Source of the DNA: an uncultured bacterium | Lineage (GTDB): Bacteria > Zhuqueibacterota > QNDG01 > DTFT01 | NCBI GenBank assembly: GCA_963736115.1 | Contig: CAVTNR010000014.1 | Span: forward strand, 160,001-224,000 | Length of the DNA stretch: 64,000 nucleotides | Direction: 5' to 3' | Shown: positions 27,195 through 47,905 of the stretch, in pieces | Numbering within the stretch: position 1 is the first letter of the stretch | How the letters are laid out: every line of letters begins with the position of its first letter | Notes under the pieces: generated by a model | What the model was told of the DNA's origin: nothing | The model's database searches: none | What the model saw: only the letters and a program-made list of their open reading frames with translations | Program-made: the position numbers and the translations under genes

Positions 27195-27284
27195 AGGCAC
27201 GACAATTGCAGAAAACGAATCGAATCATTCGGATTTGATAAGATTAAAATATTTCTTGACAAAGATGTAAATTTTTATTAAAGT
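27195..27284 (+). promoter_or_regulatory. tandem putative sigma54 and sigma70 promoters of the CsgG/adhesin cluster
   Basis: AGGCACGACAATTGCA (27195-27210; GG-N10-GC) and TTGACA (27256-27261), 17 nt, TAAAGT (27279-27284). Confidence 0.6.
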
Positions 27285-27337
27285 ATAGCTAACTCAATTG
27301 GTTTCAGATGGTTGACTATTTTTGGAGCCGGAATCCA

Positions 27338-28015
27338 ATGCGAGTTGTCCGTTTTTTCCTTCTTCTTGCGCCTTTTATCACGTTCCACGCCCAGGCTTCG
27401 GAACCCATCCGAACGCTTGCCGTACTGGATTTTGAAAACAACAGCTTTTTCAATGCGGATGAGGTTCAGCCCCTGTCCAAAGGGCTCGGCCAGATGATGG
27501 CCACTGAGCTCAGCCGCTGTCCTTCGGTCCGGATTGTGGAGCGGCGAAAACTCCAGCGCCTGGTGGACGAGTTGAAACTGGCCCAGGCGGGCGTCACGGA
27601 CGAGGAAAACGCCGTCCAGGTCGGCCGGATGGCCGGCGCACAGAACCTGGTATTCGGCGGTTATCTGGTCATGCCGGACGGCAAGATGCGGATGGATATG
27701 CGCATCGTTGAAGTGGAGACCGGGCTCACCCTGCAGGCAGGGGAGGTGACCGGCCGGACCCGGGACGCACTTTCCCTCGTGCGCAAGCTGAGCCGCAAGG
27801 TGCTCAAGGATCTCGAACTCCGGCTGACGGCGCCGGATGACCGGCCGCCCGGAAACGTCAGTCTCGAAGCGCTCACCCAGTTTTCCAAGGGGGTCGAATT
27901 TGAAGATCAGGGCGATGCGGACCGCGCCGCGGAATGCTTTCGGAAAGCCCTGGTCCTGGAGCCCGATTTCGGGCCTGCGAAGGACCGGCTCAGCCGTCTT
28001 TCGAAAAAAAGATAA
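27338..28015 (+). CDS. exported CsgG/HfaB (TolB-N)-like domain protein with C-terminal TPR
   Basis: Signal MRVVRFFLLLAPFITFHAQA (alternative start 27308); TLAVLDFENNS...IVERRKLQRLVDELKL...AVQVGRMAGA...GGY...RMDMRIVEVETG; TPR (A.ECFRKALVLEPDF). Confidence 0.85.
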   Translation: MRVVRFFLLLAPFITFHAQASEPIRTLAVLDFENNSFFNADEVQPLSKGLGQMMATELSRCPSVRIVERRKLQRLVDELKLAQAGVTDEENAVQVGRMAGAQNLVFGGYLVMPDGKMRMDMRIVEVETGLTLQAGEVTGRTRDALSLVRKLSRKVLKDLELRLTAPDDRPPGNVSLEALTQFSKGVEFEDQGDADRAAECFRKALVLEPDFGPAKDRLSRLSKKR

Positions 28016-28102
28016 GGCATTCGTTTAAGACAAACCTCACTTTTCTCCCTCTCGGGTTTCGCCGCGTGCCTCAGGGGGAATCACAGGAGCTTAGGAGGCC
28101 CT

Positions 28103-29524
28103 ATGAAATGCTGGAGAGTGGTGGGAGTGGTCGTCGCGTCCGTGTTTCTGGGATGCGCGGTTGCTCCTTACCGGCAGGCCGAGACTTATATTTCTCAAAA
28201 AGAATATAGGCAGGCGCTGCAGATTTACCTCAAAGCTCTCAACCCCCGGATGCAGAACGGCAAACGGGTGATCGCTTATGAGCCCGAGGCCATGACCGGG
28301 GTCGGCGTGGTGCTCTGGCATATGAAGCGCTACAACACGTCGGTGCGTGTCCTCGGGCAGGTGGTCCGCAGGACGCCCCAGTACGGCAAGGCGCTGTACT
28401 ATCTCGGCGGCAGTTACGAATCGCTGAACAAGCTCGACAAGGCCGGCGAAATCTACCGCCGATACGCCCTGCTCGACCAGTCCGATCCGTACCGGGAATT
28501 TCTCCGCTGGCGTTCGGACTGGTGCGACCGGCGCCTGGCCGGCCAGAACGCGCGGAAAGCCGTGGCCGATGAGGCGTCCGTCAATCTCGCCTCGCTTCCG
28601 AAGGAATCCGTGGCCGTCCTCTACTTCCAGAATCTCTCGAGAAGCGCCTGGTCGCCCCTTCAGAAGGGACTGGCCCAGCTGATCATCAACGATCTGTCCA
28701 GCGTGGAGCCGCTTGTGGTCGCGGACCGGGAGAAGGTGCAGCGGTCCATGGAAGCCATGGGCTGGACGGTTCAGGCCATGGCCCAGGACAATCGGTCGGT
28801 CCAGGTCGCCAGACTGCTCGGATCCAGGACGCTGGTGAAAGGTTCATTCAAAATCCTCCCGAATCAGCGCATCGAGTTGAGTTACGGTTCGGTGTATGTC
28901 TCCGAATCCAGAACCCCGGAATATGTCAAGCTGACGGGCGCGCTTCAGGATCTGATCCCTTTGGAAAAGCGGATGGTCCGGCGCCTGATTGCGGACATGG
29001 GCATCCGGCTGAATGCGGAGCAGGATCGGCTGATTTCAGCTTCCGGCACCCGTGAACTCAAGGCCTTTCTCCATTACTGCAACGGATTGAACGACATGGA
29101 CGCCGGAAAATTCGAATCGGCGCAGGGCAATTTCAAGAAAGCGCTGGCCCTGGATCCTGATTTCTTTCTGGCCCAGGACTGGGTGGCGGATCCGGCCGTG
29201 TACCGGGCCGCGCACGCTTCGCAGTTCGCCGCGATGAACGCGGTGGTCGAACGCATGATGTCCGGAACCGGCCATGGTCCGGGACCCGGCGCGGCCGCCG
29301 GACTCTACACCGTATCGACCGCCGGAAGGCTTGAGGAACTCGGCGTTCTGATGGACGCGGGTTTCCTTCCCGGCAATGATTCACGCGACATGGCAGACAC
29401 GGATTTCGCAGCGACGGGCGGACCGGACATCCTTCCGGGCGCCCTGCCCGCGGCGCCGGCGCCTCCGTACACGCCGGCCCGCTGGGTTTTGCCCGGGCCC
29501 CCGAGCCCGCCGAGCCGGCGCTAG
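28103..29524 (+). CDS. lipoprotein with TPR repeats and CsgG/TolB-N-like domain (triad 1)
   Basis: AGGAGG SD; lipobox VFLGC; TPRs; SVAVLYFQN...PLQKGLAQLIINDLS...ARLLG..TLVKGSF; Pro-rich tail. Confidence 0.82.
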   Translation: MKCWRVVGVVVASVFLGCAVAPYRQAETYISQKEYRQALQIYLKALNPRMQNGKRVIAYEPEAMTGVGVVLWHMKRYNTSVRVLGQVVRRTPQYGKALYYLGGSYESLNKLDKAGEIYRRYALLDQSDPYREFLRWRSDWCDRRLAGQNARKAVADEASVNLASLPKESVAVLYFQNLSRSAWSPLQKGLAQLIINDLSSVEPLVVADREKVQRSMEAMGWTVQAMAQDNRSVQVARLLGSRTLVKGSFKILPNQRIELSYGSVYVSESRTPEYVKLTGALQDLIPLEKRMVRRLIADMGIRLNAEQDRLISASGTRELKAFLHYCNGLNDMDAGKFESAQGNFKKALALDPDFFLAQDWVADPAVYRAAHASQFAAMNAVVERMMSGTGHGPGPGAAAGLYTVSTAGRLEELGVLMDAGFLPGNDSRDMADTDFAATGGPDILPGALPAAPAPPYTPARWVLPGPPSPPSRR

Positions 29525-29571
29525 GCATTTTTCATGCGGATTTCAAACACCGAACGCAAAAGGAGACAAAG

Positions 29572-32500: not shown

Positions 32501-35500
32501 AGGTGCTGGTCCGTTACTCCCGGGTCCAGTACTTTGATATCCGGAACCGCGGCGCGGGCAAGCTCTGGGTGACGGGCATCAACGCCACCAATGCGCAGTT
32601 CACGGTGTCGCCCTCCGTTTTTGCCATCGGACCCGGCGGCCGGGTGACGGTGCAGGTGCGGTTCTCGCCCCAGACCATGGGCGTCTTCAACGCGCTGATG
32701 AATATCCAGTCCACAGACCCGGTCAACGGCGGACTGCGTTCCGTTCTGCTGACCGGTACCGGATACGAGCAGACCGCGGTCAGCCACTATGAGGTGGACG
32801 GATACACCACCGGTCTCTGGCACATGGACTGGGTGAGGAGTGACACCGCGGTGACGGACACCTCGGCCAGCGGCATCACCGGATTTCTGCGCAGGCCCGG
32901 CGTGTCCAGGAACATCCTTTTCCCGCGGTACGGCGCTTCCTCGCTGTATTTCGACGGAACCACGGGATGGATGGAACTGCCCTATCACGCGGCACTGGAC
33001 TTCGCCGCTTCGGCATTCACAATCGAGACCTGGTTCCGCGCCACTTCGCGTCCGGCAGAGGGCGATTATGACGTGCTCGTCCGGCGCGGCCGGAACGCCT
33101 CCTGTCAGTACGAAATCCTATACGGCGACAGCCTGAATCCCAGCCGGGGACTGGTGGCCCGGGTCTACAATGCCCAGGGTCAGCCGGTCGTTCTGTACGG
33201 GCCGCCGGATTCCACGATGAATGCCACCTACTACAATGTCGGCCTTTCGTGGGACCTCAACAAACTGCGGCTGTATCTGAACGGCGTGTGCGTGGATTCC
33301 ACGGCCCTGACCGGCGGCCTCCGGCCGTCCTCCGAATCCATGGCCGTGGGCGGCAATTACGGCCTCAATCACGGGTTCAACGGATATATCGATGAATTCC
33401 GGATTTCCTCAGTCGCCCGTCAGTACTGGGAGTTCAATGTGACCGGTCCCAAATTCTATTCGACCACCGCGGGCCTGTCTTTCAGTCAGATCCTGCTCGG
33501 TTTGTCCGAGACGGCGTCCTTCCAGATACTCAACACAGGCGACCAGCCTTTGAAGATCACGGCGATTCAGTGGAAACGGAACGTTTTCAGCGTGGAACCC
33601 CGGGTGTTTGAAATCCCGATGGGGGGAAGCCGGACCGTGTCCGTCACCTTCACGCCGACAGCGGCCGGGTCCCAGCCGGATACGCTGGTCCTTTCATGCA
33701 ACGATCCGTCCCTGCGCACCAAGACCATACCGATCGCCGCCACCGCGGTCGATTACCGCGCCAAGGTGCCGTATACGGCGGACGACCACACGCTGGCCCT
33801 GTACCATTTCAATGAAACCACGGGCGTGACGGTCAGCGACGCCAGCGCGAACGAGTTGACCGGAACGGCGGTGAACGGACCGGAACGGGTCGACGGCTAC
33901 TTCAAGCCTTCTTCCGCCGCCGACCTGGCGCTCCGTTTTAACGGGACGAATCAGCTCGTGTCCGTTCCCATGACCGACCAGGAAGATGAAACGGTCTTTC
34001 ATCCGGCGTCCGACAGCTACAGCGTTGAGTGCTTCTTCAGAACCGATACGATCGGGCAGGCGATCTTCTACATGGACGTGCAGAGCGGGACGGACCGGTG
34101 GGGCCTGTCCATCGACGACGCCGGGTTCCTGACCGTCACCGGATTCGGCACGGGCAATGGATGGGTGGCCGACAACGCCTGGCACCATGCCGCGTTCGTG
34201 TACGACCCGTCGGTCCTTCGCGGGACGCTCTACGTGGACGGGTCGATCCAGTTCCAGGGACCCTGGCTCGGTGGCGCGTCCGACACCCGAACGCTCCGCG
34301 CCCTGGTCATCGGCGCCCGGCCGACGGGCACCAACCAGTTCACGGATTATTTCGAGGGCTCCATCGACGAGCTCCGCATCTCGGACGTCGCGCGCAAGCC
34401 CTGGGAATTCCTGTTCGCCGGAAGCGGCATGGAATTGAGCGTCCAGGGCACGCCGGTCGCGGGATCCGGCCAGATCGTGGACGTGAACGTCGCCGCGGAC
34501 ACGGACGAGAAAACCATCACCCTCTTCTACCGGACCACGGGCGATTCCGTCTGGAGTTCGGTTCAGACCACGACGGCCGACCGCATGCGGTACCGGGCCA
34601 CGGTTCCGGCGGCTGCGGTCACCGCGTCCGGCCTGGAACTGTACGCCCGCAAGACCAAGGGGACTGTGTCGGTCACCCAGCCGGTCTTCGATCCGGTGAA
34701 CCGGCCCGTTTCCGTCGCCGTTCGTTTCCGGTCCCTGATTCCGGAAATCACGCTTCCGGCGAAGAAGTATTCGATGGTCTCCGTGCCCGGCAATCTGTCC
34801 CGTCCGTCGGTGCGCGACGTGCTGCGCGACGACCTCGGCGCCTACGACCCCTATGAATGGCGCATGTTCGCGTGGAAGGACACATCGTACATCGAGTATT
34901 CGGACACCCTGTCCGAGGCGGACAGCGCGTCCTTCAACTTCACGCCCGGACGCGCCTACTGGGTCATCACGTCCGCGGCGAAGACCTTTGACGTGGACAG
35001 CGGCCTGAGCGTGCCGGTGTCGCCCGCGAGACGGACGCTCCAGGCCCAGTGGAACATGGTCGGCTCTCCGTTCCCGTTCCCGGTGTCCTGGGACGACTGC
35101 GCCCTGTCCTCCGATGCGATCGGCACACTATACGCCTACGACGGCACCGGATACCGGCTGGACTGGCCGACCCTTGAACCTTGGAAGGGGTATTTCGTCT
35201 ATAACAATCGGACCGCGCCTTCGACGATTTATGTGCCGCCCCGGAAGGCCAAAGGCGGCCAGGCGCTGACCAAGCGCGGCGTTCTCCACGAACTGGCTGA
35301 TGGCGAGTGGATCCTGAAGCTTTCCGCCCAGACGCCCGACGCCAAGGACCTTGATAATTTCTTCGGCGTCCGCGCCTCGGCCGCCGAGACCTGGGACGGC
35401 ATGGACCGCGTCGAGCCGCCCCCGATCGGCGATTATGTTTCTCTGTACGCCACGCACGCCGACTGGTCCGAGAATCCGGGAGCGTACGCGGCCGACATCC

Positions 35501-36054
35501 GTCGGCCCGGAGCGCCCGGGTATGTCTGGGACCTGACTTTGGAAACCCGCCTGGCCGGACGGACCGTGGACCTCTCCTGGTCCGTGAGCCGGACCCTTCC
35601 GGAAGGGTGGGTGGCCTATCTCGTGGATGTGAACGAAGGCACGTCCGTCTGCCTCTCCGAGAAGGACGGCATCCGCGTGGAAACCGGCAAAACCGTGCCG
35701 AACGTGAGGCGTTTCCAGCTTCTCGCTGGAAGCCGCGAGTTCGTCGAATCGAGAAGCGAGGTTCCGCTGCAGCCCGTGGCGTTCGGCCTCTCCCAGAACT
35801 ACCCGAACCCGTTCAATCCCGTGACGTCGATCCGGTATTCGCTCCCGAAGAACGGCCGCGTCCGGCTCACCGTGTACAACCTGATGGGCCAGCGGGTGAA
35901 GGTGCTGATCGACCGGGAGGAGAAGACGGGCAGCCATGAAGAGATGTGGGACGGAACCGACGACCGCGGACTTCGCGCGGCCAGCGGCATCTATCTCTAC
36001 CGGCTTGAATTCCTGGACAAGGTCGCGGTCCGGAAACTGGTCTTTGTGAAATGA
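29572..36054 (+). CDS. giant surface protein (2160 aa): LVIVD repeats, 3x[choice-of-anchor-D/ASH Ig + LamG], unnamed domain, FlgD/Por-tail-like CTD (triad 1)
   Basis: AGGAG SD; signal peptide; AYVADG..GL.VVD repeats; LDFG.V...NTG and G..DE.RIS..AR..WEF units; tail SQNYPNPFNP...RKLVFVK. Confidence 0.88.
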   Translation: MKRATVFAMWAVLAAAAFALPANAQQTLETLNMTEIGRNASGPNRAAYVSDNYVLAGNGAYLEIYEVKGTLPYLEKRGSLLLPDVVEDIYAVDQRAYVACNGAGLQIVDISSPTAPFLRGSYDTPGTAMGVFVWENRAYVADGPAGLRVVNVASSVSPYSVGVFSLNNRIVRDVKVDLWASGGGIRTVAYVAADTAGIWALDVTQDSEIIRLGALRLSGAATRLFLSTTIAYVAAGAGGLSQVSITNPTAMAVYRTWVPGEEERVAITDVFVQSSRAYLADSLSGVRVLDVSDVPNEIARLATDGSALRITHSMPSTAPNTAFVSDCGGGLLMLNVFNPQPSLIRSVQTGDSFVDVAFRGNVLFAAGRQSGLWILNRQAATLTDIPVLAHVDTLETCQGVAVRDTLLLVSNGPHGVKVMSVRNPQSPRMLASILVADEAHDVSFDGNRAVIAGGSGGVHIYNILDPRHPTFLGTVSLGTLPALSIEVDETRHVAFVSTDAAVQVVNLDDRSLMTSCEGTNNSQSSDLSADGKTLYIADGVNGMRVYDVTNAGAPRAVTGMSYNTPGFAADIRMSGDAAILADGNGTVRILSVSQSPVEVGYAHTAGFSAAVDLSGDTIAVADGAAGLYLFKANFTGHLEARSSVLDFGTVVQYRTRTLYLTLQNTGTRVVRIQSVSSATGSFKTGTAMPITIYPNRSYTLGVYFQPTAAQAYDDILTIASDAENPTVTVRVMGLGISDTPLAPYTPDYYTYLLYRMEALPGDTLVPDSSLYGYLDGRNTGARLVSADSGKAGFGRAMKFEAADRVAVRLDSAVRLPEASGFTIDTWFRPVLTQTGRKTIFRLAQGERTIFELGIKDLTAAKRGLYGLTMPVAGEPVEVVSDTAHAILTPDWNHAALVFKSNNRLILYVNGDPVDTLEVAIPIPNTGMTGTLGAADSENGFDGFLDEFRISGVARDAWEFNVSTGRIQLAAESINFGKVLVRYSRVQYFDIRNRGAGKLWVTGINATNAQFTVSPSVFAIGPGGRVTVQVRFSPQTMGVFNALMNIQSTDPVNGGLRSVLLTGTGYEQTAVSHYEVDGYTTGLWHMDWVRSDTAVTDTSASGITGFLRRPGVSRNILFPRYGASSLYFDGTTGWMELPYHAALDFAASAFTIETWFRATSRPAEGDYDVLVRRGRNASCQYEILYGDSLNPSRGLVARVYNAQGQPVVLYGPPDSTMNATYYNVGLSWDLNKLRLYLNGVCVDSTALTGGLRPSSESMAVGGNYGLNHGFNGYIDEFRISSVARQYWEFNVTGPKFYSTTAGLSFSQILLGLSETASFQILNTGDQPLKITAIQWKRNVFSVEPRVFEIPMGGSRTVSVTFTPTAAGSQPDTLVLSCNDPSLRTKTIPIAATAVDYRAKVPYTADDHTLALYHFNETTGVTVSDASANELTGTAVNGPERVDGYFKPSSAADLALRFNGTNQLVSVPMTDQEDETVFHPASDSYSVECFFRTDTIGQAIFYMDVQSGTDRWGLSIDDAGFLTVTGFGTGNGWVADNAWHHAAFVYDPSVLRGTLYVDGSIQFQGPWLGGASDTRTLRALVIGARPTGTNQFTDYFEGSIDELRISDVARKPWEFLFAGSGMELSVQGTPVAGSGQIVDVNVAADTDEKTITLFYRTTGDSVWSSVQTTTADRMRYRATVPAAAVTASGLELYARKTKGTVSVTQPVFDPVNRPVSVAVRFRSLIPEITLPAKKYSMVSVPGNLSRPSVRDVLRDDLGAYDPYEWRMFAWKDTSYIEYSDTLSEADSASFNFTPGRAYWVITSAAKTFDVDSGLSVPVSPARRTLQAQWNMVGSPFPFPVSWDDCALSSDAIGTLYAYDGTGYRLDWPTLEPWKGYFVYNNRTAPSTIYVPPRKAKGGQALTKRGVLHELADGEWILKLSAQTPDAKDLDNFFGVRASAAETWDGMDRVEPPPIGDYVSLYATHADWSENPGAYAADIRRPGAPGYVWDLTLETRLAGRTVDLSWSVSRTLPEGWVAYLVDVNEGTSVCLSEKDGIRVETGKTVPNVRRFQLLAGSREFVESRSEVPLQPVAFGLSQNYPNPFNPVTSIRYSLPKNGRVRLTVYNLMGQRVKVLIDREEKTGSHEEMWDGTDDRGLRAASGIYLYRLEFLDKVAVRKLVFVK

Positions 36055-36089
36055 CCAACGGCCGTCACCCTGTCTCGAAGGGGATTCCC

Positions 36090-37256
36090 ATGATCAAACA
36101 CAGAACCATGCGGATGTTCGGACTGCTGATGCTTCCGGCGCTGGCGGCGGCCCAATGGGCCCCGCCGCCGGCCGGCCCGCGGGGCGGATTCGTGAATACG
36201 GGCCTGTCCTACCAGCAGTGGTCATTCGAGGACGTGGACGAGGGCCTGCAGGAAGTCTGCGCGCCGACCACCGCCTACATCCCGGTGCGGCCGGACCTGT
36301 CGCTTACCATTTCAGGAACGCCGGGCTCGGCGTCCTGGGATCAACTCAAGCTGAGCGGCATGTCGGACACCTGGATCCGGGGGACCTACCGCGTCCCCGG
36401 CGGGCGAACCATGCTGCACGCGGGCCTGGGCCTTCCGACCGGTAAAACGAAGCTCAAGATCGCAGCCGATTCGCTGGGCATGGAGGAGTTCGATCTCTCC
36501 CGCATCATCGGTCAGAACATCTTCCGTTTCCGGCTTCCCGTTTTCGGCCAGGGTCTGGCCGCGAAAATCGGGGCGGGGGCCGCGTTTCCCGCAGGCGAGA
36601 ACGTGGTGATCGGCGCGGGCGCGCATTACATCTACCATGGTTCTTTCGAGCCGGTGGACGCCGACTCATTCGACTACCAGGCGGGCGGGGAAGCGGCCCT
36701 GTTCGGCGGCGTGGACGTGCAGGTCTCGCCGACCGCGAAATGGTCCGTGAACCTCAGCTATACCCTCTACGGCCGGGATAAATTGAACGATGAAACCGTG
36801 TATGCCTCCGGCGAAAAACTGCTGATCAACAGCTCCTTTACGGGGAAGCTGGGACCCGGCACCCTGACCGCCTGGCTCAACTGGCGTCAGAAGGGTAAAA
36901 ACGAATACTGGATCCATACCGGGACACAGACCGAGAGGCAGACGGAAAAGAAGAATTCCAACGGACCGCAGACCGAACTGGACGCGGCCTGGCGCATCCC
37001 GTGGCGCCCGCAGGCGGCGTTCTCCATTCTCGCTACCGGGCGTTTCTACGGCCAGAATGACTACCGCACCGGAGGGGCCGACGTTTACGGCGCCGGAGCG
37101 GGCGTGGACGCCCGGGTGTCTTCACAGCTCTCGGTTTCCCTGAGCCTGATCGGGCTCACGGGCAAGACGAAGGACTGGAGCGAGGCGGCAGAGAAAACGG
37201 TCCGGACCGGACTGACCAGTTTCGATCTCCTGGCCGGAATGACGTACGGATGGTAA
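36090..37256 (+). CDS. putative outer-membrane beta-barrel protein (triad 1)
   Basis: Signal peptide (alternative start 36051), amphipathic Gly/aromatic-rich strands, GMSDTW and GLGLPTGKT motifs, C-terminal aromatic residue (LAGMTYGW). Confidence 0.75.
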   Translation: MIKHRTMRMFGLLMLPALAAAQWAPPPAGPRGGFVNTGLSYQQWSFEDVDEGLQEVCAPTTAYIPVRPDLSLTISGTPGSASWDQLKLSGMSDTWIRGTYRVPGGRTMLHAGLGLPTGKTKLKIAADSLGMEEFDLSRIIGQNIFRFRLPVFGQGLAAKIGAGAAFPAGENVVIGAGAHYIYHGSFEPVDADSFDYQAGGEAALFGGVDVQVSPTAKWSVNLSYTLYGRDKLNDETVYASGEKLLINSSFTGKLGPGTLTAWLNWRQKGKNEYWIHTGTQTERQTEKKNSNGPQTELDAAWRIPWRPQAAFSILATGRFYGQNDYRTGGADVYGAGAGVDARVSSQLSVSLSLIGLTGKTKDWSEAAEKTVRTGLTSFDLLAGMTYGW

Positions 37257-37276
37257 TCGGGCTTTAGGAGGAACCG

Positions 37277-38650
37277 TTGATGAAAGGGAGAATGCTGGCC
37301 GCGCTCGGCGCGCTTATTCTGTTCAGCGGCTGTGCCGCTTCCCGGCACGGGCTCGCGGAAGGCCAGTTGAAGCGCGGGGAGTACGTCCAGGCGCTGCGGT
37401 CCTATCTGAGAGGACTGGAACCGCATGCCCGGGACGGAAAGCGGTTCATCTACTACGAGCGCGAGGCGGTCACAGGCCTGGGCGTGACGTACTGGAATAT
37501 GGAACGGTACGAAACGGCTCTGAAGATTCTCCGGCTGGTCGCGGAGAAGGATCCGGATTACGGAAAGGCCTATTTCTACATGGGCCTGGCCTACGAGAGT
37601 CTCGGAGACGAGGCCAACGCCATCGCCATGTACCGCCAGTACACGAAAATCGACCCGGGGGATCCCTTCCGGCAGGCTCTGGCCGGCCGTTATGATTTCC
37701 TGGCCAAGCGTAAGATCACACATGATATCGAGACGGCGCTGAAAGACGAAGGACGGCTGGACGCCTCCTCGACTCCGGAACGCAGCGTGGCGGTTCTCAC
37801 ATTCCTCAACCTCGGAGACAACCGGGAGTGGGAGCCGCTGCAGAAGGGGCTCGCGGACATGGTGACCCGGGATCTGTCCCGGGTGGAGGGGCTGACCGTC
37901 GTGGACCGGACGAAACTGGATCAGATCCTCTACGAGCTCGGCCTGAATGCGTCGAGTCTCGGGGATTCGGCGGCCGCGAGGCGTGCGGGCATGCTCGCCG
38001 GGGCCCGGTATCTGGTCAAGGGATCCTTTCTGGTCATGCCGGATCTGAAGATGACGCTGGACGCCGGGGTTCATCCCTTTCAGAAGGCGAACCAGCCCAC
38101 GACTTTCAGCGAAGACGGAAACCTTTCCACGATGTTTCAGATGGAGAAGCAGATCGTCCTGAGGATCGTGGATTATTTCGGCATTACGCTGACCACCCGG
38201 CAGAAAGAGGCCGTGCTGGAGATTCCCACGGAGAACGTGTCGGCCTTCCTGCATTACTGCCGCGGCCTGGACGCCCAGGACCAGGACGACTACCGGTCCG
38301 CGGTCGCGTATTTCCGGCAGGCGGTGCGGGAGGATCCCGATTTCCGGATGGCCCGGGACTGGCTCATCGTCCGGGAGCTCTGGGACGCGACGCATGCGCA
38401 GAACCTGCGCCGGGTGGACCGAGACGTCGCTTTTCTGACACGGCGGGGCGCGCGGGCGCGTCTGTCGGCGGACAATCAGCCGGAACTTTTCTCCACGTCC
38501 GGCCGTCTTCAGTGGATGAGCCTGAGGCAGAACGCCGGTTTTCTGCCGGGCACCGATTCAAGAAAATCCTTCCAGGAAGCGGGCCTGTCCGGGGCGTCCC
38601 TCCTCCCGCAGAGGCTGGGAGAGCCCCCGGTTCCGCCTCCGGCCCGGTAG
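37277..38650 (+). CDS. lipoprotein with TPR repeats and CsgG/TolB-N-like domain (triad 2)
   Basis: AGGAGG SD; lipobox LFSGC; paralog of 28103 (YEREAVTGLGV, PDYGKA.FY.G..YESL, SVAVL.F.N, PLQKGLA, LVKGSF, AFLHYC.GL, GFLPG.DSR). Confidence 0.85.
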   Translation: MMKGRMLAALGALILFSGCAASRHGLAEGQLKRGEYVQALRSYLRGLEPHARDGKRFIYYEREAVTGLGVTYWNMERYETALKILRLVAEKDPDYGKAYFYMGLAYESLGDEANAIAMYRQYTKIDPGDPFRQALAGRYDFLAKRKITHDIETALKDEGRLDASSTPERSVAVLTFLNLGDNREWEPLQKGLADMVTRDLSRVEGLTVVDRTKLDQILYELGLNASSLGDSAAARRAGMLAGARYLVKGSFLVMPDLKMTLDAGVHPFQKANQPTTFSEDGNLSTMFQMEKQIVLRIVDYFGITLTTRQKEAVLEIPTENVSAFLHYCRGLDAQDQDDYRSAVAYFRQAVREDPDFRMARDWLIVRELWDATHAQNLRRVDRDVAFLTRRGARARLSADNQPELFSTSGRLQWMSLRQNAGFLPGTDSRKSFQEAGLSGASLLPQRLGEPPVPPPAR

Positions 38651-38724
38651 GCGGCACGGAGACGGGCCGGCTGCCGCGCCTGAACACGGCCGGCCGCGCG
38701 CCGGACGGCTTTTGACGCATTTAT

Positions 38725-38983
38725 GATTGAAGCTCCCCGCGGCCCCGCTTTGCGGGACCAAGCAATTAGATTTATAAATTATTGAAGACAAGCCGCGGGC
38801 CTTCAATAATGTACTAAATAGGGTAGCATGGTGCCGCCTTGCGGCGAATCTTCAATCGGTATTGCTGTATTGTACAAAATATATTATATTCGCTCGCTTA
38901 CCCCGCCGCCCGCTTCGCGGGATCAAGCTACTTGATGTCTTCTGGTTGAAGACAAGCGGCGGGAATACGCGAGCGATCAGATT
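38725..38983. mobile_element. second copy of the hairpin-ended MITE/PATE-like element with three nested mini-elements
   Basis: Same left end, central segment and TCAGATT right end as 23897-24186; AT-rich interior; lies between two co-oriented cluster genes. Confidence 0.7.
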
Positions 38984-39059
38984 CACCCGATCCGTCCCGG
39001 ATCGTTTCAGTCACCGGAGGGGCGGATCCACGCAACGGGACTCGAGGAGAAACTGCACG

Positions 39060-42000: not shown

Positions 42001-45000
42001 ACGAAGTGCGGCTTTCCAGCATCGCCCGCGAATCCTGGGAGTACCATGTCACGCGCTCGAGAATCGCGGTCTCCCAGTCCATCGTCCAATTCGGGAACGT
42101 TCTGGCCAACCAGACCCGGACCGTCCCTCTGGCCATCTCCAATCTCGGCAGCCAGCCGCTGGTGGTCCAGTCCGTGACGAGCGGGAACGCGCATGTGACG
42201 GTGAATCCGTCCGGTCCGTTCACTCTGTTCGTCGGACAGACGGACACACTCGATGTCTCCTTCTCGCCGGTCGGCGTGGAGGTGCTGACGCAGGGCAGTC
42301 TGCTCCAGATTCGGAGCAATGATCCCACCTATCCGGTCCTGGCCGTCCCGCTCCGGGGAAGCGGCATCAATTCGCTTCCGGCGGGGCCCTATGCGGCCGA
42401 TCCGATGACGCTGGGTCTGTGGCATCTCGACGAAACCTCCGGTCTGGTCGCGCGCGATTCCTCCGGTAACGGCATGAACGGAGCCCTTTCCGGATCCGTG
42501 GCCCGCGAAACGGTGACGCGCAAATTCGATCCGGGATCCGCTCTCCGTTTCGACGGTCAGAGCGGACTGGTTTCCGCTCGGCCGCCCGCAGGTGTGAAAA
42601 TCGAACCGACTTGGGGCGGACTCACCGCCGAAGCGTGGTTCTATCTGCAGGGCCTTCCGCTGGGCAGGGGCACCCTGATGCGCCGCGCCTCCGGCGCCGC
42701 ATCCCAGTTCCATCTCTACGTAGACAGCACGGCCGCCCTGGTGGGGCAGTTTTTCAATACGCAGCAGCAGGCCTTCTCCGTGACCAGCGCCTCGATGGGC
42801 GCGCTGAAGATCCGGCAGTGGTACCACGCCGCTGTCGTTCTGGAGCGGGACAGCCTCCGGCTCTACGTCAACGGCAATTCCGTCGCGGTCCGCCCCTTCA
42901 CGGGAACGCCCGCGGGCGGGGGCAGCCCCGCCGGAACCGACACGATGTCCGTCCTGATCGGATCGAGCTGGAACCGGAGCACGCCCTTCTACGGCGTGTT
43001 GGACGAGATCCGCCTGTCTTCGACGGCGCGTCAGCCATGGGAATATAACGTGAACCTGGCGAGAATCGGCCTTACTCCGGAATTGCTGGCTTTCGAGAGC
43101 GTTCTGCTCGGACAGAGGCGGACCCTGGCGCTGACGGTGGGGAACACGGGCATCGACAACCTGGTCGTGACGGACATCGTTTCCTCGCTTCCGTCGGTTT
43201 TCTCCGTGGACACCACGCATTTCACGGTTGCATCCGGCGCAAGCCGGAGAATTCATGTCACCTATCATCCGCAGTCCACGGGCGCCGTGACCGCACAACT
43301 CACTTTCCGGAGCAACGACCCGTTCTGGCCCAACCGGGCGGTTCCTCTGACGGGAACGGGCCTGGCGGAACGGTCGTTCGTCCGGTACGCGGCGGACGCA
43401 TTCACCCTCGGCCTCTTCCACATGGATGAGGCGGCCGACACCTCCAAAACCCTCTGGGATTCATCCGCCGTGGGCCTCCGGGGCACCCTTGAGACGGGCG
43501 TGACGCGCACGGATTCGGGCCGCTTCGGCCGGGCCTTGCGCTTCGCGAACGGATCCGTCCGGATTCCGACAGCGGGCCGGATGGCGATTCCGGATGATGC
43601 GTTTACCCTGGAATTCTGGTTCAACATCCAGACGCTTCCGGGAACATCCGCCGTTCTGCTCAAGCAGGGGAACGGCGATACGGCAACGGTCGAGATTTCG
43701 CTCGTCAACGCCGCGTCCGAAGGCCTGACGGCCCGATTCTGGAACGGGCAGGGCGTTGCCACCTCCCTGAAAACGGGAAGCATCTCCGCCACGCCCCGCA
43801 ACCAGTGGATGCACGTCGCGGTGACCTTCACCTCCGATACGCTGAAACTCTATTTGAACAATATTCTCCGCGACCGGAAGGCATTTACCGGGCCGCTGCG
43901 TCAGGCCCGGGCGTCCGTTCTGCGGCTCGGGTCCGGCCTCAGCAAGGAGAACCCCTTCACCGGCATGCTCGACGAGCTGCGCATTTCGCGGATCGCACGG
44001 GCCTTATGGGAAATTCATGTGGTTCCGCCGGTGATCGAGGCCGCTCCCGTCTCTCTGAATTTCGCATCCGTGCTGAAGACGGAAAAACGCGCCTTCCCGT
44101 TCTGGGTCTGGAACGCGGGCGACCAGGATCTGGTTGTTTCCTCGATCTCGGGGATGACCGCCCAGTTCACGATCCCCGATTCGGTCCGCACCTTCACTCT
44201 GAGGCGCCTGCAGACCCGGATGGTCACGGTCACGTACAGCCCGGACACAGTCAACGTGACGCAGACCGCCGTGCTCACGGTCGCCAGCAACGATCCGAAA
44301 ACGCCCGCCGTGAACATCCAGCTCGAGGGCAGGGGCGCTGAATTCACCGGCCGGAAGGAATACGCCGCGGACGCGCATACGATCGCCCTGTATCACATGA
44401 ATTCCGCGGAGAGCGACTCCGCGGAGGACGCCTCCGGAAACCGCCGCCACGGAATTCTCCAGAACGACGCGATCTGGGCCTCCGATGGATTTTTCGGCCG
44501 CGCCATCTGGCTCGACGGAGACGGGGACCGTATCCTGGTCCCGGCCGATTCGGCCCTGATCATGGACTATGACCGGCGGAGTTTCACGCTGGAATGCTAC
44601 TTCAAGACGGACACGCTGTCACAGACGATACTCTCCCTCGGGTATACGGACAGCCGCCGCTCGCGGAATTTCGGCCTGGACATCGATTCGGAGGGGCGTC
44701 TTTCCGTCGAACACTTCGGTTCGGGCGGCCCCCGCGTCAACGACGCGGCATGGCATTTTGCGGCCTTCTCCTACAATCATCTGCTCAAGCGGGGCCGGCT
44801 GTTCATCGACACCCTGCAGGTCTGGGAAAGGCCCGTCACCCCCTATGCGTCGCGGCAGGAATTCCTCCCGCTGGTCATCGGCGCGGCCCAGGCGGACTCA
44901 GTGTCGTTCACGGGACATTTCAAGGGCGCGGTTGACGAGGTCCGGATCTCCGACATCGTCCGGGAGTCCTGGGAATTCCAGGTCATCGACTACGGCATAC

Positions 45001-46646
45001 GCGTCCAGTCAATCGTCCCGGACCCGCCGACCGCCGGATCGATGATGACCATCGTATTCGCCGTTCCGTCCGCGCTTCAGGCCCAGCAGGTGATTCTGTA
45101 CTACCGGCAGGGCGGGCAGACCGGCTACCGGTCGGTTCAGACGGAGCGTCAGACGAATTCCGTGTATAAGACCGTGATTCCCGCCGAACAGGTGACCGAG
45201 CGCGGGTTTGAATACTGGCTCGAAGTCCGGACCGACAAGGGCGACGTCACCGTGCCCGGAATCGATCCGGAACAGAACCCGATGTCCCGGAGCGTGCGGA
45301 CCGTAGGCCTCAGATCCGGCGTCACCTTCCGCGCCCGGGAGTTCCAGATGTTCTCGATTCCCATGAAGCTTGACACCGCCACGGTGCGGAGCGTGCTTGA
45401 GGACAGGGACGATTTCGGCTCCTATGATCCCTTCCAGTGGCGGCTTTTCTGGTGGCATCGCCTCCGCCAGCGGTACATCACCTACAACAACACGGATACG
45501 ACGCGGTTGTATTTCGATTTCTCCCCGTCCCGCGCCTACTGGCTCGTGTCCTCGACTGAGAAGAACTTCGATCTCGGGAACGCGCGCACCGTCTCTCTCG
45601 ATACCGTTTTCCGGGTACCCGTGGATCCGGGGTGGAACATGATCGGCAATCCCTTCAATTTCACCGTCCGGTGGCAGGATTGTTCGCTCTCTTCGGATTC
45701 CATCGGAACCCTCTACTCCTACAATCCGGAGGAGGGATACGGCCCCGACTGGCAGACCCTGGATCCTTGGAAGGGGTACTGGATCTACAATGCGGACACG
45801 GTGTCGCACGCCCTGTTCATCCCCCCGAAATCGCGCGGTTTCGGCAAGACGGGCGGGAAACGGCCCGGACTCGCGGAATCGCTCGGCAGTGGAGAATGGC
45901 TGCTGCAGCTGTCGGCGGCCACGAAGCGCCAGAAGGACGGCCTCCAGTACGCCGGCGTCAAGAAAAACGCCCGTGACGGGTGGGACATATGGGACAGGCC
46001 CGATCCGCCTCCGGTCGAACCACGGATTTCGGCCGGATTCGATCACGGCGACTGGGGACGGCATTCCGGCACCTATGCGGCGGATATCCGGAAAAGCGGG
46101 ACGGAGGGCCATGTCTGGAGCCTGTTCGTCGAGACCCAGAATCCGGAAGAGGCGGTGACGCTGGCATGGAAATGGATTTCGACCATGCCGGAGGGATGGA
46201 AGGCTTTCTTGTTCGACCTCGCCGAAGGCACATCCGTGAACATGACCGAGCTCGGGGTGAAATCGTTCATGAGCGGTTCAACGGCACCGGATGTCCGGCT
46301 GTTCAAACTGGTTGCCGGCTCCGAAGCTTTCATCCGGGCCGAGAGCGAGGGCATTCCCCTGGAACCGGTCGTTTTCCATGTCTTCCAGAATTATCCGAAT
46401 CCGTTCAATCCGGAGACCACGATCCGCTACCGTCTGCCGAAGAACGGAAACGTCGAAGTGTCGGTCTTCAATGCGCTCGGGCAGAAAATACGCATTCTGG
46501 TCGACGCGACCCAGAAAACGGGTGAACAGTCGGTGGTATGGGACGGCAGCGATGACTCAGGCCGGCCCGTTCCCAGCGGCCTTTACATCTCCCGGGTGAA
46601 AACCCGCGAATCGACGTCCACCCGAAAGATGCTGTTGGTCCGATGA
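39060..46646 (+). CDS. giant surface protein (~2528 aa): LVIVD repeats, 4x[ASH Ig + LamG], unnamed domain, FlgD/Por-tail-like CTD (triad 2)
   Basis: Start reassigned to ATG 39060 (GAGGAG SD; MRKWIVLGCLFGSIGWAAA signal). Collinear paralog of 29572; tail QNYPNPFNP...RKMLLVR. Confidence 0.88.
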   Translation: MRKWIVLGCLFGSIGWAAAQPAANVSRLGRWALGQCEVVHRRAGFLFVSSGPMLEVYQNKHGEYTKSDSILMPGLVKGVWVKNTLSHAYIACGDAGLRVVSFDAVDGRFGDVVGSLDTPGSAEGVMQYGNTAYIADGPGGLAVVDVSDPAQPTLRGTQATAGAARGVWVVANTPAIDNTMVLVAADSAGLYSVNVTNPTAPAVYDRLAFNTVYPGFQVPAPRAIQVTVIDTVAYVATGYGSLRTVDIRNPRLMTQMGVWMNSPYTEVLGMDVTWETVGGKPAPQYAYLATGAKGVFCPINIQNPRDLKGPPYQNVDTRGTTTRIVVSTEADSLFIGSALMRFKAGELLFVSDRENGLLFIDARESYQPSVIDSIRTGGDVCRDADWSGRYAYVAAGWAGVKIVDTTGTAADPDTDRLPLRGTIDTGGQARGLRVVGSRLYVANGVKGLGIYSISDPVNPALSGRFTAVTDTVHRVDLLSGSYAFLAAGRDGIRIVDISGSIFETGQSPLRTAGPALDVKIRGSKAYVATPGAVYVYALTQSGGALTGVSLTDSLTAGAALPMDARALDVIGDSVFVANGRHGLILWKTSNDAVLVKNVGGTVTGITVREKTLYVSDAVNGFRIYDASTAGEIKEVGYYRTLGEALGLGISDSDGKAVMADGRYGFWLFRSRISPAITITPTTLNFGLVPPDYSRSLTALIRNTGTSILKVTNIQSKRTTYSFSATRFEIAAGDTFRLVIRFAPSYDTWPFRQDDRIEISTNDPSNLTAYINLQAEVTALVTEGPYTPDDFTVGLWHFDEADGVLTAADGSGNSLHGQLAGTPFRENSARSGYGRQIGFDSETDRVLVPQNPLFNFSEKSFTAECWFSMDALPTDHYVLIRHGSETQAQFELALGSGDVGLIGRVWDSSGARTLTSGSIDLFNVNQWYHAALTWNGDSLKLYLNGVQKAGLRVRNRLKFVATEPLAIGANQYGTAVFRGRMDEVRLSSIARESWEYHVTRSRIAVSQSIVQFGNVLANQTRTVPLAISNLGSQPLVVQSVTSGNAHVTVNPSGPFTLFVGQTDTLDVSFSPVGVEVLTQGSLLQIRSNDPTYPVLAVPLRGSGINSLPAGPYAADPMTLGLWHLDETSGLVARDSSGNGMNGALSGSVARETVTRKFDPGSALRFDGQSGLVSARPPAGVKIEPTWGGLTAEAWFYLQGLPLGRGTLMRRASGAASQFHLYVDSTAALVGQFFNTQQQAFSVTSASMGALKIRQWYHAAVVLERDSLRLYVNGNSVAVRPFTGTPAGGGSPAGTDTMSVLIGSSWNRSTPFYGVLDEIRLSSTARQPWEYNVNLARIGLTPELLAFESVLLGQRRTLALTVGNTGIDNLVVTDIVSSLPSVFSVDTTHFTVASGASRRIHVTYHPQSTGAVTAQLTFRSNDPFWPNRAVPLTGTGLAERSFVRYAADAFTLGLFHMDEAADTSKTLWDSSAVGLRGTLETGVTRTDSGRFGRALRFANGSVRIPTAGRMAIPDDAFTLEFWFNIQTLPGTSAVLLKQGNGDTATVEISLVNAASEGLTARFWNGQGVATSLKTGSISATPRNQWMHVAVTFTSDTLKLYLNNILRDRKAFTGPLRQARASVLRLGSGLSKENPFTGMLDELRISRIARALWEIHVVPPVIEAAPVSLNFASVLKTEKRAFPFWVWNAGDQDLVVSSISGMTAQFTIPDSVRTFTLRRLQTRMVTVTYSPDTVNVTQTAVLTVASNDPKTPAVNIQLEGRGAEFTGRKEYAADAHTIALYHMNSAESDSAEDASGNRRHGILQNDAIWASDGFFGRAIWLDGDGDRILVPADSALIMDYDRRSFTLECYFKTDTLSQTILSLGYTDSRRSRNFGLDIDSEGRLSVEHFGSGGPRVNDAAWHFAAFSYNHLLKRGRLFIDTLQVWERPVTPYASRQEFLPLVIGAAQADSVSFTGHFKGAVDEVRISDIVRESWEFQVIDYGIRVQSIVPDPPTAGSMMTIVFAVPSALQAQQVILYYRQGGQTGYRSVQTERQTNSVYKTVIPAEQVTERGFEYWLEVRTDKGDVTVPGIDPEQNPMSRSVRTVGLRSGVTFRAREFQMFSIPMKLDTATVRSVLEDRDDFGSYDPFQWRLFWWHRLRQRYITYNNTDTTRLYFDFSPSRAYWLVSSTEKNFDLGNARTVSLDTVFRVPVDPGWNMIGNPFNFTVRWQDCSLSSDSIGTLYSYNPEEGYGPDWQTLDPWKGYWIYNADTVSHALFIPPKSRGFGKTGGKRPGLAESLGSGEWLLQLSAATKRQKDGLQYAGVKKNARDGWDIWDRPDPPPVEPRISAGFDHGDWGRHSGTYAADIRKSGTEGHVWSLFVETQNPEEAVTLAWKWISTMPEGWKAFLFDLAEGTSVNMTELGVKSFMSGSTAPDVRLFKLVAGSEAFIRAESEGIPLEPVVFHVFQNYPNPFNPETTIRYRLPKNGNVEVSVFNALGQKIRILVDATQKTGEQSVVWDGSDDSGRPVPSGLYISRVKTRESTSTRKMLLVR

Positions 46647-46687
46647 AACGGCTTTCGAACCGCAACTCACGAGCGCGAGGTGCATGC

Positions 46688-47851
46688 ATGAGAGGAAAAG
46701 CCTGGATCGGGTTCGCGGCCCTTCTGCCGTGCATCCTGTCCGCCCAGCCCGACGTTTCGTCCCGGGAACCCATGGCATCGCTGACGACGTCCTGCTCCGT
46801 CCAGATGTGGCGGATGGAGGCCGGGGATCACCGGGTCGTGAATCAGGTCTCTTTTCCAGTCCTGCTCACCGCGCCCGTGGGTCGGAATATCCAGCTCGCG
46901 ATCCAGCATACACCCGCCATGAGCCGGTGGTACGGCGACTACAAGATCAACGGGACATCGGACACTTGGATTCAGGGATCCTACCTGCATCCGAACAAGA
47001 CACTTCTCCTGAACTTCGGTCTGGGCGTTCCCACCGGGAAAACCCGGCTGAACAATCAGGAGTTCGAACTCGGCCAGATCATCAGCCAGAATTTCTTCCG
47101 CTTCACGCTTCCGGTGTACGGACAGGGTCTGTGCGGCAGGGCCGGCGCCGCGGGCGCGTTCCCCCTCGGCGAAAGGGCGGTTCTCGGAGTCGGGGGCCAG
47201 TACCTGATGCGGGGCCAATACAAACCGGTTGAATACCGGTATGAATTCGACGGCATCGTCAAAATCGCGGACGCGTCGTACAAGCCCGGGGACGAGGCGA
47301 CCGCCCAGCTTGGCCTGGACGTCCGGCTGGACGATCATTTCAAGCTGATGGCGGACGCGGAATACACGTTCTACCAGAAGGATCTGCTCGGCGATCGGGA
47401 GATTTTTCAGGCCGGGGCGAAAACCACCGCCAGCATCGGATTGTACCGCGAATTCGACCGGCAGTACTGGATGGCCCTGATTACGGCCCGTTTCAACGAC
47501 AAGATTCAAACGCTTCAGGGACTCAAACTCGAAGAGGCGCCGGGCAAGCCGCAGGGAAGCCAGATCGAGATGAACGCCGTTTACAAGGTCGTCGCCTTCC
47601 GGGAGGGCGGTCTCTTTCTGCTCGCAGACGCCCGCTATTATTCCCGGCAGACCGTGAAGGTGCTTTACGAGACCCGTTCCGAGCTTGACGGTTTCGCGGC
47701 CGGCGCCGGTGTCGGCGTGCAGTTCACCCTATGGGAAAACGCGCTCGGCGACATGCGCGTCAAGTTTCTCGGAGGCAATCTCGAAACCAACGGGAACCGG
47801 AGCGGACTTTTCGGCATGGATGCCGGATTCGGGGTCAAGATTCTGCTCTGA
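46688..47851 (+). CDS. putative outer-membrane beta-barrel protein (triad 2)
   Basis: Paralog of 36090 (GTSDTWIQG, GLGVPTGKTRL, EF.L..II.QN.FRF.LPV.GQGL, AFP.GE..V.G.G); alternative start 46643. Confidence 0.75.
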   Translation: MRGKAWIGFAALLPCILSAQPDVSSREPMASLTTSCSVQMWRMEAGDHRVVNQVSFPVLLTAPVGRNIQLAIQHTPAMSRWYGDYKINGTSDTWIQGSYLHPNKTLLLNFGLGVPTGKTRLNNQEFELGQIISQNFFRFTLPVYGQGLCGRAGAAGAFPLGERAVLGVGGQYLMRGQYKPVEYRYEFDGIVKIADASYKPGDEATAQLGLDVRLDDHFKLMADAEYTFYQKDLLGDREIFQAGAKTTASIGLYREFDRQYWMALITARFNDKIQTLQGLKLEEAPGKPQGSQIEMNAVYKVVAFREGGLFLLADARYYSRQTVKVLYETRSELDGFAAGAGVGVQFTLWENALGDMRVKFLGGNLETNGNRSGLFGMDAGFGVKILL

Positions 47852-47876: not shown

Positions 47877-47905
47877 ATCGCCCCCTCCCCAGGGGGCGAT
47901 TCTGT
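47877..47905 (+). terminator. hairpin closing the cluster (weak U-tract)
   Basis: ATCGCCCCCT/AGGGGGCGAT stem 25 nt after the stop codon. Confidence 0.5.

Follow-up and report, generated by a model that had tools for sequence, protein, structure and literature searches.

Lipoprotein and barrel genes duplicated together with giant type IX cargo genes in an uncultured Zhuqueibacterota bacterium: a candidate outer-membrane platform for surface proteins

A stretch of 64,000 nucleotides from an uncultured bacterium of the phylum Zhuqueibacterota (assembly GCA_963736115.1, contig CAVTNR010000014.1, positions 160,001 to 224,000; the window in what follows) contains seven co-oriented genes in the order A-[B1-C1-D1]-[B2-C2-D2] at window positions 27338-47851, encoding predicted periplasmic proteins (A, B), giant surface proteins (C) and outer-membrane barrels (D). 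Relatives of this cassette are found throughout the phylum, and its conserved core proves to be A-B-D. The window is part of contig C14 of an assembly of 3.34 Mb that is 87% complete and is labelled G000 among the genomes compared here. Open reading frame (ORF) scanning and translation place on the plus strand A (27338..28015, with an alternative start at 27308), B1 (28103..29524, 473 amino acids (aa)), C1 (29572..36054, 2160 aa), D1 (36051..37256, 401 aa), B2 (37277..38650, 457 aa), C2 (39060..46646, 2528 aa when read from MRKW... at 39060, or 2594 aa from a TTG at 38862) and D2 (46643..47851, 402 aa). Stop and start codons overlap or nearly touch at the C1/D1 and C2/D2 junctions, and also at the D4/E4 junction of a further set described below. 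In pairwise alignment B1 and B2 are 37% identical (E 2e-95), D1 and D2 31% identical (E 1e-48), and C1 and C2 35% identical over 1562 columns; A aligns over ~200 aa with the central and C-terminal part of B (32% with B2 and 30% with B1; E 2e-25 and 1e-28). All seven genes that a sequence-only reading of the window had placed in this order and orientation are thus present, with a paralogy far beyond chance (30-37% identity), and the paralogous beta-barrels, lipoproteins and giant repeat proteins that it had recognized among them are borne out as described below.

A, predicted to be periplasmic, begins with a plain signal peptide, which is followed by a small CsgG-N/LpoB-like alpha/beta domain, and has a single tetratricopeptide repeat (TPR) in its C-terminal part. 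The translations of B1 and B2 carry the lipoboxes FLGC and FSGC, as expected of lipoproteins, and the cysteine (Cys18) is retained almost without exception among 32 B sequences. B1 is built of N-terminal TPRs, an alpha/beta plus TPR core like that of A, a proline-rich tail and a conserved GFxPGxDSR motif, in which R428 is invariant and P423 nearly invariant among the same 32 sequences. Residues 31-118 of A match positions 6-97 of the 210-position CsgG profile with 48.1 bits, and B2 matches positions 35-97 only, with 28.1 bits; B1 shows TPRs and no direct CsgG match in Pfam, and is tied to the CsgG-like group through its homology to A. The earlier description of all three proteins as CsgG-like with TPRs therefore stands for A, for B2 and for the TPRs, while B1 lacks a direct match and the likeness concerns the N-terminal part of the profile only. 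Further matches are of the same kind: LpoB in Pfam (20.3 bits on A), a weak alignment of the A profile with CsgG chains of the PDB (E 0.022, over residues 63-128 in some chains and 78-143 in others), and PDB searches with the A and B profiles that are dominated by TPR proteins. Because the CsgG likeness is limited to profile positions 6-97 of 210, secretion of the CsgG/HfaB type is not indicated. The pore-forming half of the profile has no counterpart, and A and B are thus predicted not to be CsgG pores; the earlier caution that a CsgG-like fold does not prove a pore was well placed, as the matched part excludes the membrane-inserting half.

C1 and C2 consist, according to Pfam and NCBIfam, of LVIVD repeats, TPRs, choice-of-anchor-D Ig domains (three in C1, four in C2), Laminin_G_3 domains (three and four), a conserved module that we call Cmod (34372-35796 in C1, 45129-46388 in C2) and a C-terminal domain (CTD). 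The type-A sorting domain TIGR04183 scores 37.2 bits in C1, 39.7 in C2 and 23.5 in C3, a third Cmod protein of the same genome, with a cut-off of 23; the giant LVIVD/Ig/LamG proteins with a sorting-type tail are therefore present as had been proposed, and C1 and C2 are predicted type-A cargos of a type IX secretion system (T9SS). Cmod is a conserved pre-CTD module of T9SS cargos, ~470-475 aa long, modelled (predicted local distance difference test, pLDDT, 89.6) as an all-beta array of three domains. No fold assignment was retained for it, since Foldseek returned generic Ig arrays and the matches in VIA-align, generic as well, were confined to its first, Ig/FN3-like domain (residues 15-118, Z up to 11.5).

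The export route that these tails imply is partly visible in the genome. SprA (823 bits, cut-off 200) and PorU (839.9 bits, cut-off 420) are present, and the PorV model NF033710 gives 15 matches, none of them on a D gene: the best, at 242.4 bits, lies just below the cut-off of 250, and the other 14 are weaker partial paralogues, scattered over many contigs (e.g. C17:65877-66950, C27:76464-77045 and C10:78380-78961). GldM (TIGR03517, PF12081) and GldL (TIGR03513) have no match in this 87% complete genome, and GldK (TIGR03525) reaches 75 bits at best against a cut-off of 350, with models that are trained on Bacteroidota; in control genomes none of the PorK/L/M models exceeds its cut-off, TIGR03517 and TIGR03513 being silent and sub-cut-off matches appearing for TIGR03525 in three genomes and for PF12081 in one. 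The T9SS core is thus found in part, with SprA and PorU above cut-off, PorV just under it, and PorK/L/M not detected. By hidden Markov models (HMMs) built here and run on all six-frame ORFs, the genome has 129 CTD-bearing ORFs, three inside the cassettes and 126 outside, so that a large T9SS secretome coexists with an apparently incomplete core of the Bacteroidota type.

The D proteins have a plain signal peptide, which in D1 suggests a start at M14-M22. An AlphaFold model of D1 (pLDDT 84.5) is a barrel that begins at about residue 44, leaving no room for POTRA or TPR domains, and from its DSSP string 16 strands can be read, with a 41-residue third loop that contains a helix (residues 129-169). 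A 14-strand barrel of the FadL/PorV type was also considered; the strand count of the model points rather to 16. The residues that are invariant in the family lie mostly in the third loop (P129, G131, L135 and G166-Q167-G168). A word-based homology search gave 31 relatives, named "hypothetical" or "opacity protein-like", and a search of the D profile against 1.84 billion cluster representatives gave 1457 at E <= 0.001, of which 542 reach E <= 1e-30. One source name and Atlas look-alikes are tentative leads to distant relatives in Gemmatimonadota, Ignavibacteriota and Zixibacteria. None of 30 D members scores above any Pfam cut-off at E <= 1, where ten weak or sub-threshold families alone appear, among them Toluene_X (E 0.039) and BCSC_C (E 0.025), each on a single member; OMP_b-brl reaches 26.8 bits on D1, below its cut-off. 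There is no NCBIfam family for D1 or D2, and the best sequence relative of the D profile in the PDB has an E of only 0.064. The PorP/SprF family PF11751 matches 0 of 30 members at E <= 1, a comparison of sequences with which a distant fold relation is still compatible, and it has no match in the genome, the control genomes being silent too.

Structural comparison of the model does not place it in a family either. The best fold neighbours are CdiB (Z 19.3, root mean square deviation 3.9 over 290 aligned residues), BamA (18.9), FhaC (18.2-18.6) and PgaA (18.2), followed by BcsC (16.8-18.0), CymA (17.6-17.7), PelBC (16.8-17.0), OprB (17.0), chitoporin (16.7-17.2) and porins (16-17); FadL ranks lower (Z 15.0) and yet is the first Foldseek match (E 9e-9, TM 0.46). 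Since the Z-scores of translocators, secretins and porins fall within ~3 units, D cannot be assigned by its fold. D is thus predicted to be an outer-membrane barrel of a new, unnamed family, lying outside the known porin families as far as Pfam, NCBIfam and PDB sequence relatives extend.

The distribution of D provides the wider frame for the locus. Among 167 genomes of the phylum (two of them flagged unpublished) the D profile is found in 119, representing 75 of 100 genera, and it is present in all 30 other genomes of the order to which the window belongs. The D1 sequence alone, used as a query, yielded five related loci. Gene order was compared in 40 D regions from 31 genomes and 15 families, a non-random sample of the best-scoring D matches on long contigs that was annotated by HMMs for B, Cmod, CTD, D and E. 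At all 40 loci B and D share a cluster, B being upstream on the same strand at 36, in an adjoining stretch at two, directly downstream at one, and split into two ORFs at one. A cargo of 927-3144 aa with Cmod and CTD is found between B and D at 25 loci (A-B-C-D), a lipoprotein, E, is encoded directly after D with no giant cargo at 11 (A-B-D-E), and four loci show other arrangements. A-like genes adjoin B in many loci and are present with most sets. Of the linkage that had been expected among B, C and D, the association of B with D thus holds without exception, and that with C does not, C being missing from 15 of the 40 D loci. The cassette is a phylum-wide module, the phylum being probably KSB1, and because these 15 loci lack a giant cargo and 11 of them have E after D, its conserved core is A-B-D rather than B-C-D.

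The genome from which the window comes contains both architectures. It has four D genes, four full-length B genes plus A, three Cmod proteins and one E (HMMs built here, six-frame ORFs), and all three Cmod proteins, C1, C2 and C3, are located between a B and a D. Two further B-D sets lie outside the window, one on contig C21 (with C3 and D3) and one on contig C8 (B4-D4-E4), where the lipoprotein gene E4 is directly 3' of D4. C3, with 1201 aa, differs from C1 and C2 in its N-terminal part, which is PorZ-like (92.7 bits, cut-off 260). Close relatives (L029) also have the tandem double triad, as do G035 and G036, which belong to another family of the same order.

E proteins (G000 contig C8:104659-108808, which is L073; L045-L048, L053, L054, L056, L057, L060 and L072) share an invariant lipobox cysteine and a conserved core of ~140 aa, to which variable LamG, Big/Big_7, PEGA and Glucodextran_B domains are added. 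The core belongs to no Pfam or NCBIfam family. Assignment to Mfa2 or DUF4458 was rejected, the Atlas scores of 0.83-0.85 being below the level of a lead and below those of unnamed clusters (0.91-0.92), and so was a relation between E and Cmod (hhalign probability 0.07). In both kinds of passenger the conserved module adjoins the membrane-tethered end of the protein, and the distal domains (LVIVD, LamG, Ig, PEGA, Big) vary.

Trees of the cassette proteins show the same subfamilies. In the D tree (44 sets, IQ-TREE quick, with Shimodaira-Hasegawa-like approximate likelihood ratio test (SH-aLRT) supports) the E-linked and C-linked barrels are split with a support of 99, and subclades D1, D2, D3 and D5 are resolved. 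The D1, D2, D3 and D5 groups each form one clade in the B tree, with supports of 96, 99, 99 and 100, as does the E-linked group together with L060 (support 99), and each again forms one clade in a tree of the C-terminal 560 aa of C, with supports of 100, 84, 100 and 99. The subfamilies cut across genomes, G000 itself holding members of D1, D2, D3 and the E-linked group DE, and the pattern therefore reflects an old paralogy of whole sets rather than the relatedness of species. Since the B, C and D trees are congruent in this way, it appears that sets duplicate and diverge as units, and the earlier proposal that the triad of the window had duplicated and diverged as a whole is upheld.

A prediction of the B1-D1 complex (B1 residues 19-473, D1 residues 36-401; three runs and three controls) gave a score of 0.49 (runs 0.58, 0.49 and 0.49), against 0.00 for the best control. 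The score lies in the weak band of a mark that 116 of 157 solved complexes attained, as did 2 of 215 mismatched pairs. Between runs 26% or more of the contacts are shared, with a partner pLDDT no lower than 78. This weak score is counted only because the linkage of B with D had made binding likely beforehand, and the model thus lends mild support to a contact between the two proteins. The GFxPGxDSR motif that follows the proline-rich linker of B is, speculatively, a candidate for that contact.

Some cassettes of the phylum carry additional genes. In the D5 subfamily an ORF of ~390 aa lies between B and C (L059:3706-4851, L062:4244-5428, L061:14390-15580, L063:13797-14978 and L066:13561-14700); the three of these that were scanned (L059, L062, L061) all contain an FGE-sulfatase domain, the protein of L062 has PorK/GldK as its best NCBIfam match (138.7 bits, cut-off 350), and an A-like gene follows D in four of seven D5 loci (L061, L062, L063, L066). 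In two families, genes for Ser/Thr kinases with PEGA domains are found immediately upstream of enlarged A-like genes (L049:8991-10859, L050:8080-10101 and L071:6484-8754), as determined by Pfam for L049 and L071, the latter also with TPRs, and by BLAST clustering only for L050. Just 3' of D3 there is a gene for an apparent lipoprotein with the GH3 and PA14 domains of a glycosidase (G000 contig C21:51000-52811; L074:1000-2808).

The immediate surroundings of the window copy are less telling. A small gene for an ArsR-family helix-turn-helix regulator (26688..26984, plus strand; Pfam HTH_5 45.5 bits, cut-off 22) precedes the cassette and is followed by a T-rich stretch. In the AT-rich region 5' of A there is a sigma-70-like promoter match, TTGACA-17-TAAAGT (27256..27284, plus strand), with 10 of 12 consensus positions, a consensus match only, one such site being observed against 0.6 expected from shuffled sequence. 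The cluster closes, 26 nucleotides (nt) 3' of D2, with a hairpin of a perfect 10-bp stem and 4-nt loop (47877..47900, plus strand). The promoter and closing hairpin of the sequence-only reading are therefore present as sequences; the hairpin has no T-run, and a terminator scan made no call at 47877-47900.

The 409-nt gap between B2 and C2 (38651..39059) is filled with copies of a genome-wide dispersed short repeat and stands outside the system proper. The stretch 38740-38970 has 68 matches in the genome, with GC-rich palindromic cores, and no Rfam family matches the repeat; a promoter-like match in the gap falls within it, and the depth of metagenome contigs piles up there. Because only ~67 nt separate B2 and C2 in the close relative L029, the repeat looks like an insertion resembling miniature inverted-repeat transposable elements or repetitive extragenic palindromes. 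This insertion accounts for the upstream TTG as a spurious start, and C2 most likely begins at 39060 and not at 38862.

Public sequencing runs contain related sequence. The metatranscriptome library X12 has contigs that align with parts of C1 and C2 and with the C1/D1 junction (window 34415-36313 and 41632-45794) at ~92-98% identity, and three sediment DNA runs contain relatives at 90-97% identity along the whole stretch. Only small shares, at most 0.20 of the words, are found in the runs, and the matching contigs, being only 90-98% alike, come from relatives; parts that these contigs leave uncovered carry no meaning. The X12 contigs are thus a hint of expression in a relative, and matches of this kind do not themselves show transcription.

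Taken together, these features are tentatively read here as those of a cognate outer-membrane carrier or anchor platform for the cassette's own passenger, similar in plan to PorP/SprF-PorE and not homologous to it; such a function is quite possible, short of probable. B would lie at the outer membrane, on its periplasmic side, paired with the D barrel, and A, a paralogue of the B core that is soluble in the periplasm, would serve both sets of the window. Judged by their sequences, C1 and C2 are exported by the T9SS by means of their type-A CTD; after export each may pass to its own D barrel and be retained by it on the cell surface, supported from the periplasm by B and A. In the A-B-D-E form the passenger would be the lipoprotein E that is encoded right after D. 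Each set would co-evolve with its passenger, and for this reason whole sets, never single genes, would have been duplicated.

A number of observations weigh against such a platform. Of the 167 genomes of the phylum, 136 contain Cmod (E <= 1e-30), commonly in multiple copies and in many cases with neither B nor D; Cmod is more widespread than D with its 119 genomes. Cmod and D occur respectively in 3/4 and 0/4 genomes of family f10, in 4/8 and 0/8 of family f19, and in 10/10 and 1/10 of family f25, and one genome (G117) has nine Cmod matches against three of D. Fifteen Cmod genes in 14 loci (L077-L090), picked because no D was listed beside them, are not adjoined by any B or D at E <= 0.01; a single neighbour, of 1182 aa, scores 19 bits, a level that TPRs alone can give. 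Conversely, two genomes that are both 97% complete (G044 and G006) have A-B-D and no Cmod protein, and G085, a complete genome, combines three B-D sets with a single Cmod protein. Since Cmod cargos occur in families without D, this type of cargo needs no B or D in general, and the suggestion of the sequence-only reading that each cargo may require its own cognate lipoprotein and barrel is not supported in that form. Furthermore, as E bears no relation to Cmod, a single barrel family would be required to recognize two different modules; the residues that are invariant in D belong to a loop that folds inward and suit a channel or plug no less well than a docking surface; and the band of complex scores up to 0.60, into which B1+D1 falls, contains only 18 of the 157 solved complexes and both of the mismatched pairs that passed.

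An alternative is that D and B constitute a dedicated translocon or assembly machine of the Slam/type XI secretion system (T11SS) or TpsB kind, through whose barrel E, and perhaps C, would pass. The top fold neighbours of D include the 16-strand translocators CdiB, FhaC and BamA, the conserved inward loop could gate a channel, and E directly follows D in 11 of the 15 cargo-less loci, an arrangement that recalls the Slam genes, which adjoin those of their substrates (PMC5449769, PMC8406197). The TPR_Slam profile also matches B2, with 29 bits, below the cut-off of 35.2. However, C has another route, with its type-A CTD and with SprA, PorU and PorV in the genome; the barrel leaves no room for a POTRA domain; and the fold Z-scores do not discriminate among barrel types, nor does any Pfam family rise above its cut-off in the 30 D members. 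A translocon of this kind is unlikely.

Still less probable is a capture-and-uptake unit, in which the passenger would bind a surface polymer, D would be a substrate-specific channel, and B and A would be periplasmic adaptors. The long third loop of D is porin-like and carries the invariant residues, the sugar channels CymA, OprB and chitoporin are among its close fold neighbours, C and some E proteins have ConA-like LamG domains, and D3 is followed by the GH3 and PA14 glycosidase lipoprotein. No hydrolase or transporter gene is conserved with the cassette across the loci examined, however, and a Pfam scan of the genes flanking the window copy found nothing like one; the structural matches are unspecific, and a plain porin would need no duplicated B-D sets matched to passengers.

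Export by A, B and D of a non-protein polymer, in the manner of PelB-PelC, PgaA or BcsC and with C or E as an adhesin that binds the polymer, appears very unlikely. PgaA, BcsC and PelBC are near the top of the D fold list, A and B combine TPRs with the small CsgG-N/LpoB-like alpha/beta domain, and PelC has a similar small alpha/beta fold. Nevertheless, neither the window nor the 15 cargo-less loci show a conserved gene for a glycosyltransferase, a synthase or a polymerase, and the one-to-one match of sets with protein passengers, together with the co-diversification with C, would be left unexplained. An envelope signalling or structural unit, for instance one that senses the state of surface proteins with no role in placing them, can be discounted to a like degree, for although genes for Ser/Thr kinases with TPRs and PEGA domains precede A-like genes in three loci, the A/B core aligns with the middle of the cyclase-type family TIGR04510 (30 bits, cut-off 400) and an ArsR-type regulator gene precedes the window cassette, kinases occur in only three of the 15 cargo-less loci, most cassettes have no regulator near them, and signalling families match only at scores far short of their cut-offs.

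The carrier or anchor platform can be elaborated into a more specific proposal, which is offered as a conjecture and is doubtful in its full form: A-B-D would form the centre of a surface-display apparatus, so far undescribed, in KSB1 and neighbouring phyla of the Fibrobacterota-Chlorobiota-Bacteroidota (FCB) group, in which A and B assemble on the periplasmic side, the GFxPGxDSR peptide of B couples this assembly to the inner loop of D, and C or E is threaded or docked and held, by a passenger-specific mechanism distinct from those of PorV/PorU, PorP/SprF, Slam and two-partner secretion. As PorK/L/M/N have not been detected, this apparatus might stand in for parts of the T9SS in these phyla. 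Among openly available main texts (subscription papers and supplements being outside the search) no paper was found that joins KSB1 or LVIVD with type IX secretion, nor does any among the papers listed for such a combination of domains describe a cassette of this kind, and with D in no named family the earlier impression that this is not a recognized, named system is sustained. We know of no account of how uncultivated bacteria of the FCB group outside the Bacteroidota hold huge proteins at their surface, and the cassette, present in 119 of 167 genomes, is a concrete and widespread candidate for the anchoring of such proteins. It also brings to light three unnamed protein families, namely the D barrel, the core of the E lipoproteins and the pre-CTD module Cmod, and the presence of natural cognate and non-cognate sets in one genome makes it usable for tests of specificity.

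Comparison with known systems does not support membership of the cassette, as judged from its sequences, in PorP/SprF, PorV, Slam, TpsB or CsgG, and shows features in common with most of them. With CsgG/HfaB it shares a lipoprotein (B) and, in A and B, the small alpha/beta domain with which the CsgG profile begins; unlike CsgG it lacks the membrane-pore part, has added TPRs and uses a separate barrel gene, and ORF and Pfam scans showed no curli-type subunit genes in the window. In PelB-PelC, PgaA and BcsC, by contrast with the cassette, TPR and barrel are not separate genes, and the cassettes examined have no conserved linked polymer synthase. The TpsB proteins FhaC and CdiB are among the best fold neighbours of D (Z 18.2-19.3), and there too a giant adhesin-like gene lies beside that of a 16-strand barrel, but D has neither POTRA nor a ShlB or Bac_surface_Ag match such as would mark it as TpsB or Omp85, and C has a T9SS CTD in place of a TPS domain. 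Slam/T11SS resembles the cassette in combining TPRs with a barrel, in the position of its gene beside that of a lipoprotein substrate with variable domains, and in the occurrence of several paralogous pairs per genome (PMC5449769, PMC8406197). It differs in that TPR and barrel are separate genes in the cassette and the window copies carry T9SS cargos and not lipoproteins; the Slam barrel domain DUF560 has no match in 30 D members at E <= 1.

The PorE-PorP-PG1035 and SprF-SprB systems are a precedent for the combination of a barrel, a TPR lipoprotein and a type-B T9SS cargo (PMC9143113), and type-B cargo is described as leaving the translocon on alternative carriers that anchor it (PMC10994853). 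In these systems the gene of a giant or surface T9SS cargo lies beside that of its own outer-membrane barrel, with several paralogous barrel-cargo pairs per genome; a periplasmic, outer-membrane-associated TPR lipoprotein binds the barrel; and the barrel is the surface anchor or carrier. The cassette differs from them in that C has a type-A CTD (TIGR04183) and not one of type B, D is without PF11751 and is larger (~16 strands in the model), and B has neither a WD40 nor an OmpA_C domain. There is moreover an additional periplasmic paralogue, A, the passenger of a sister cassette is a lipoprotein, E, which lacks a CTD, and the host is outside the Bacteroidota. If the carrier or anchor platform is correct, the idea of a cargo with its own barrel would extend from the type-B to the type-A cargos of the T9SS and to lipoproteins.

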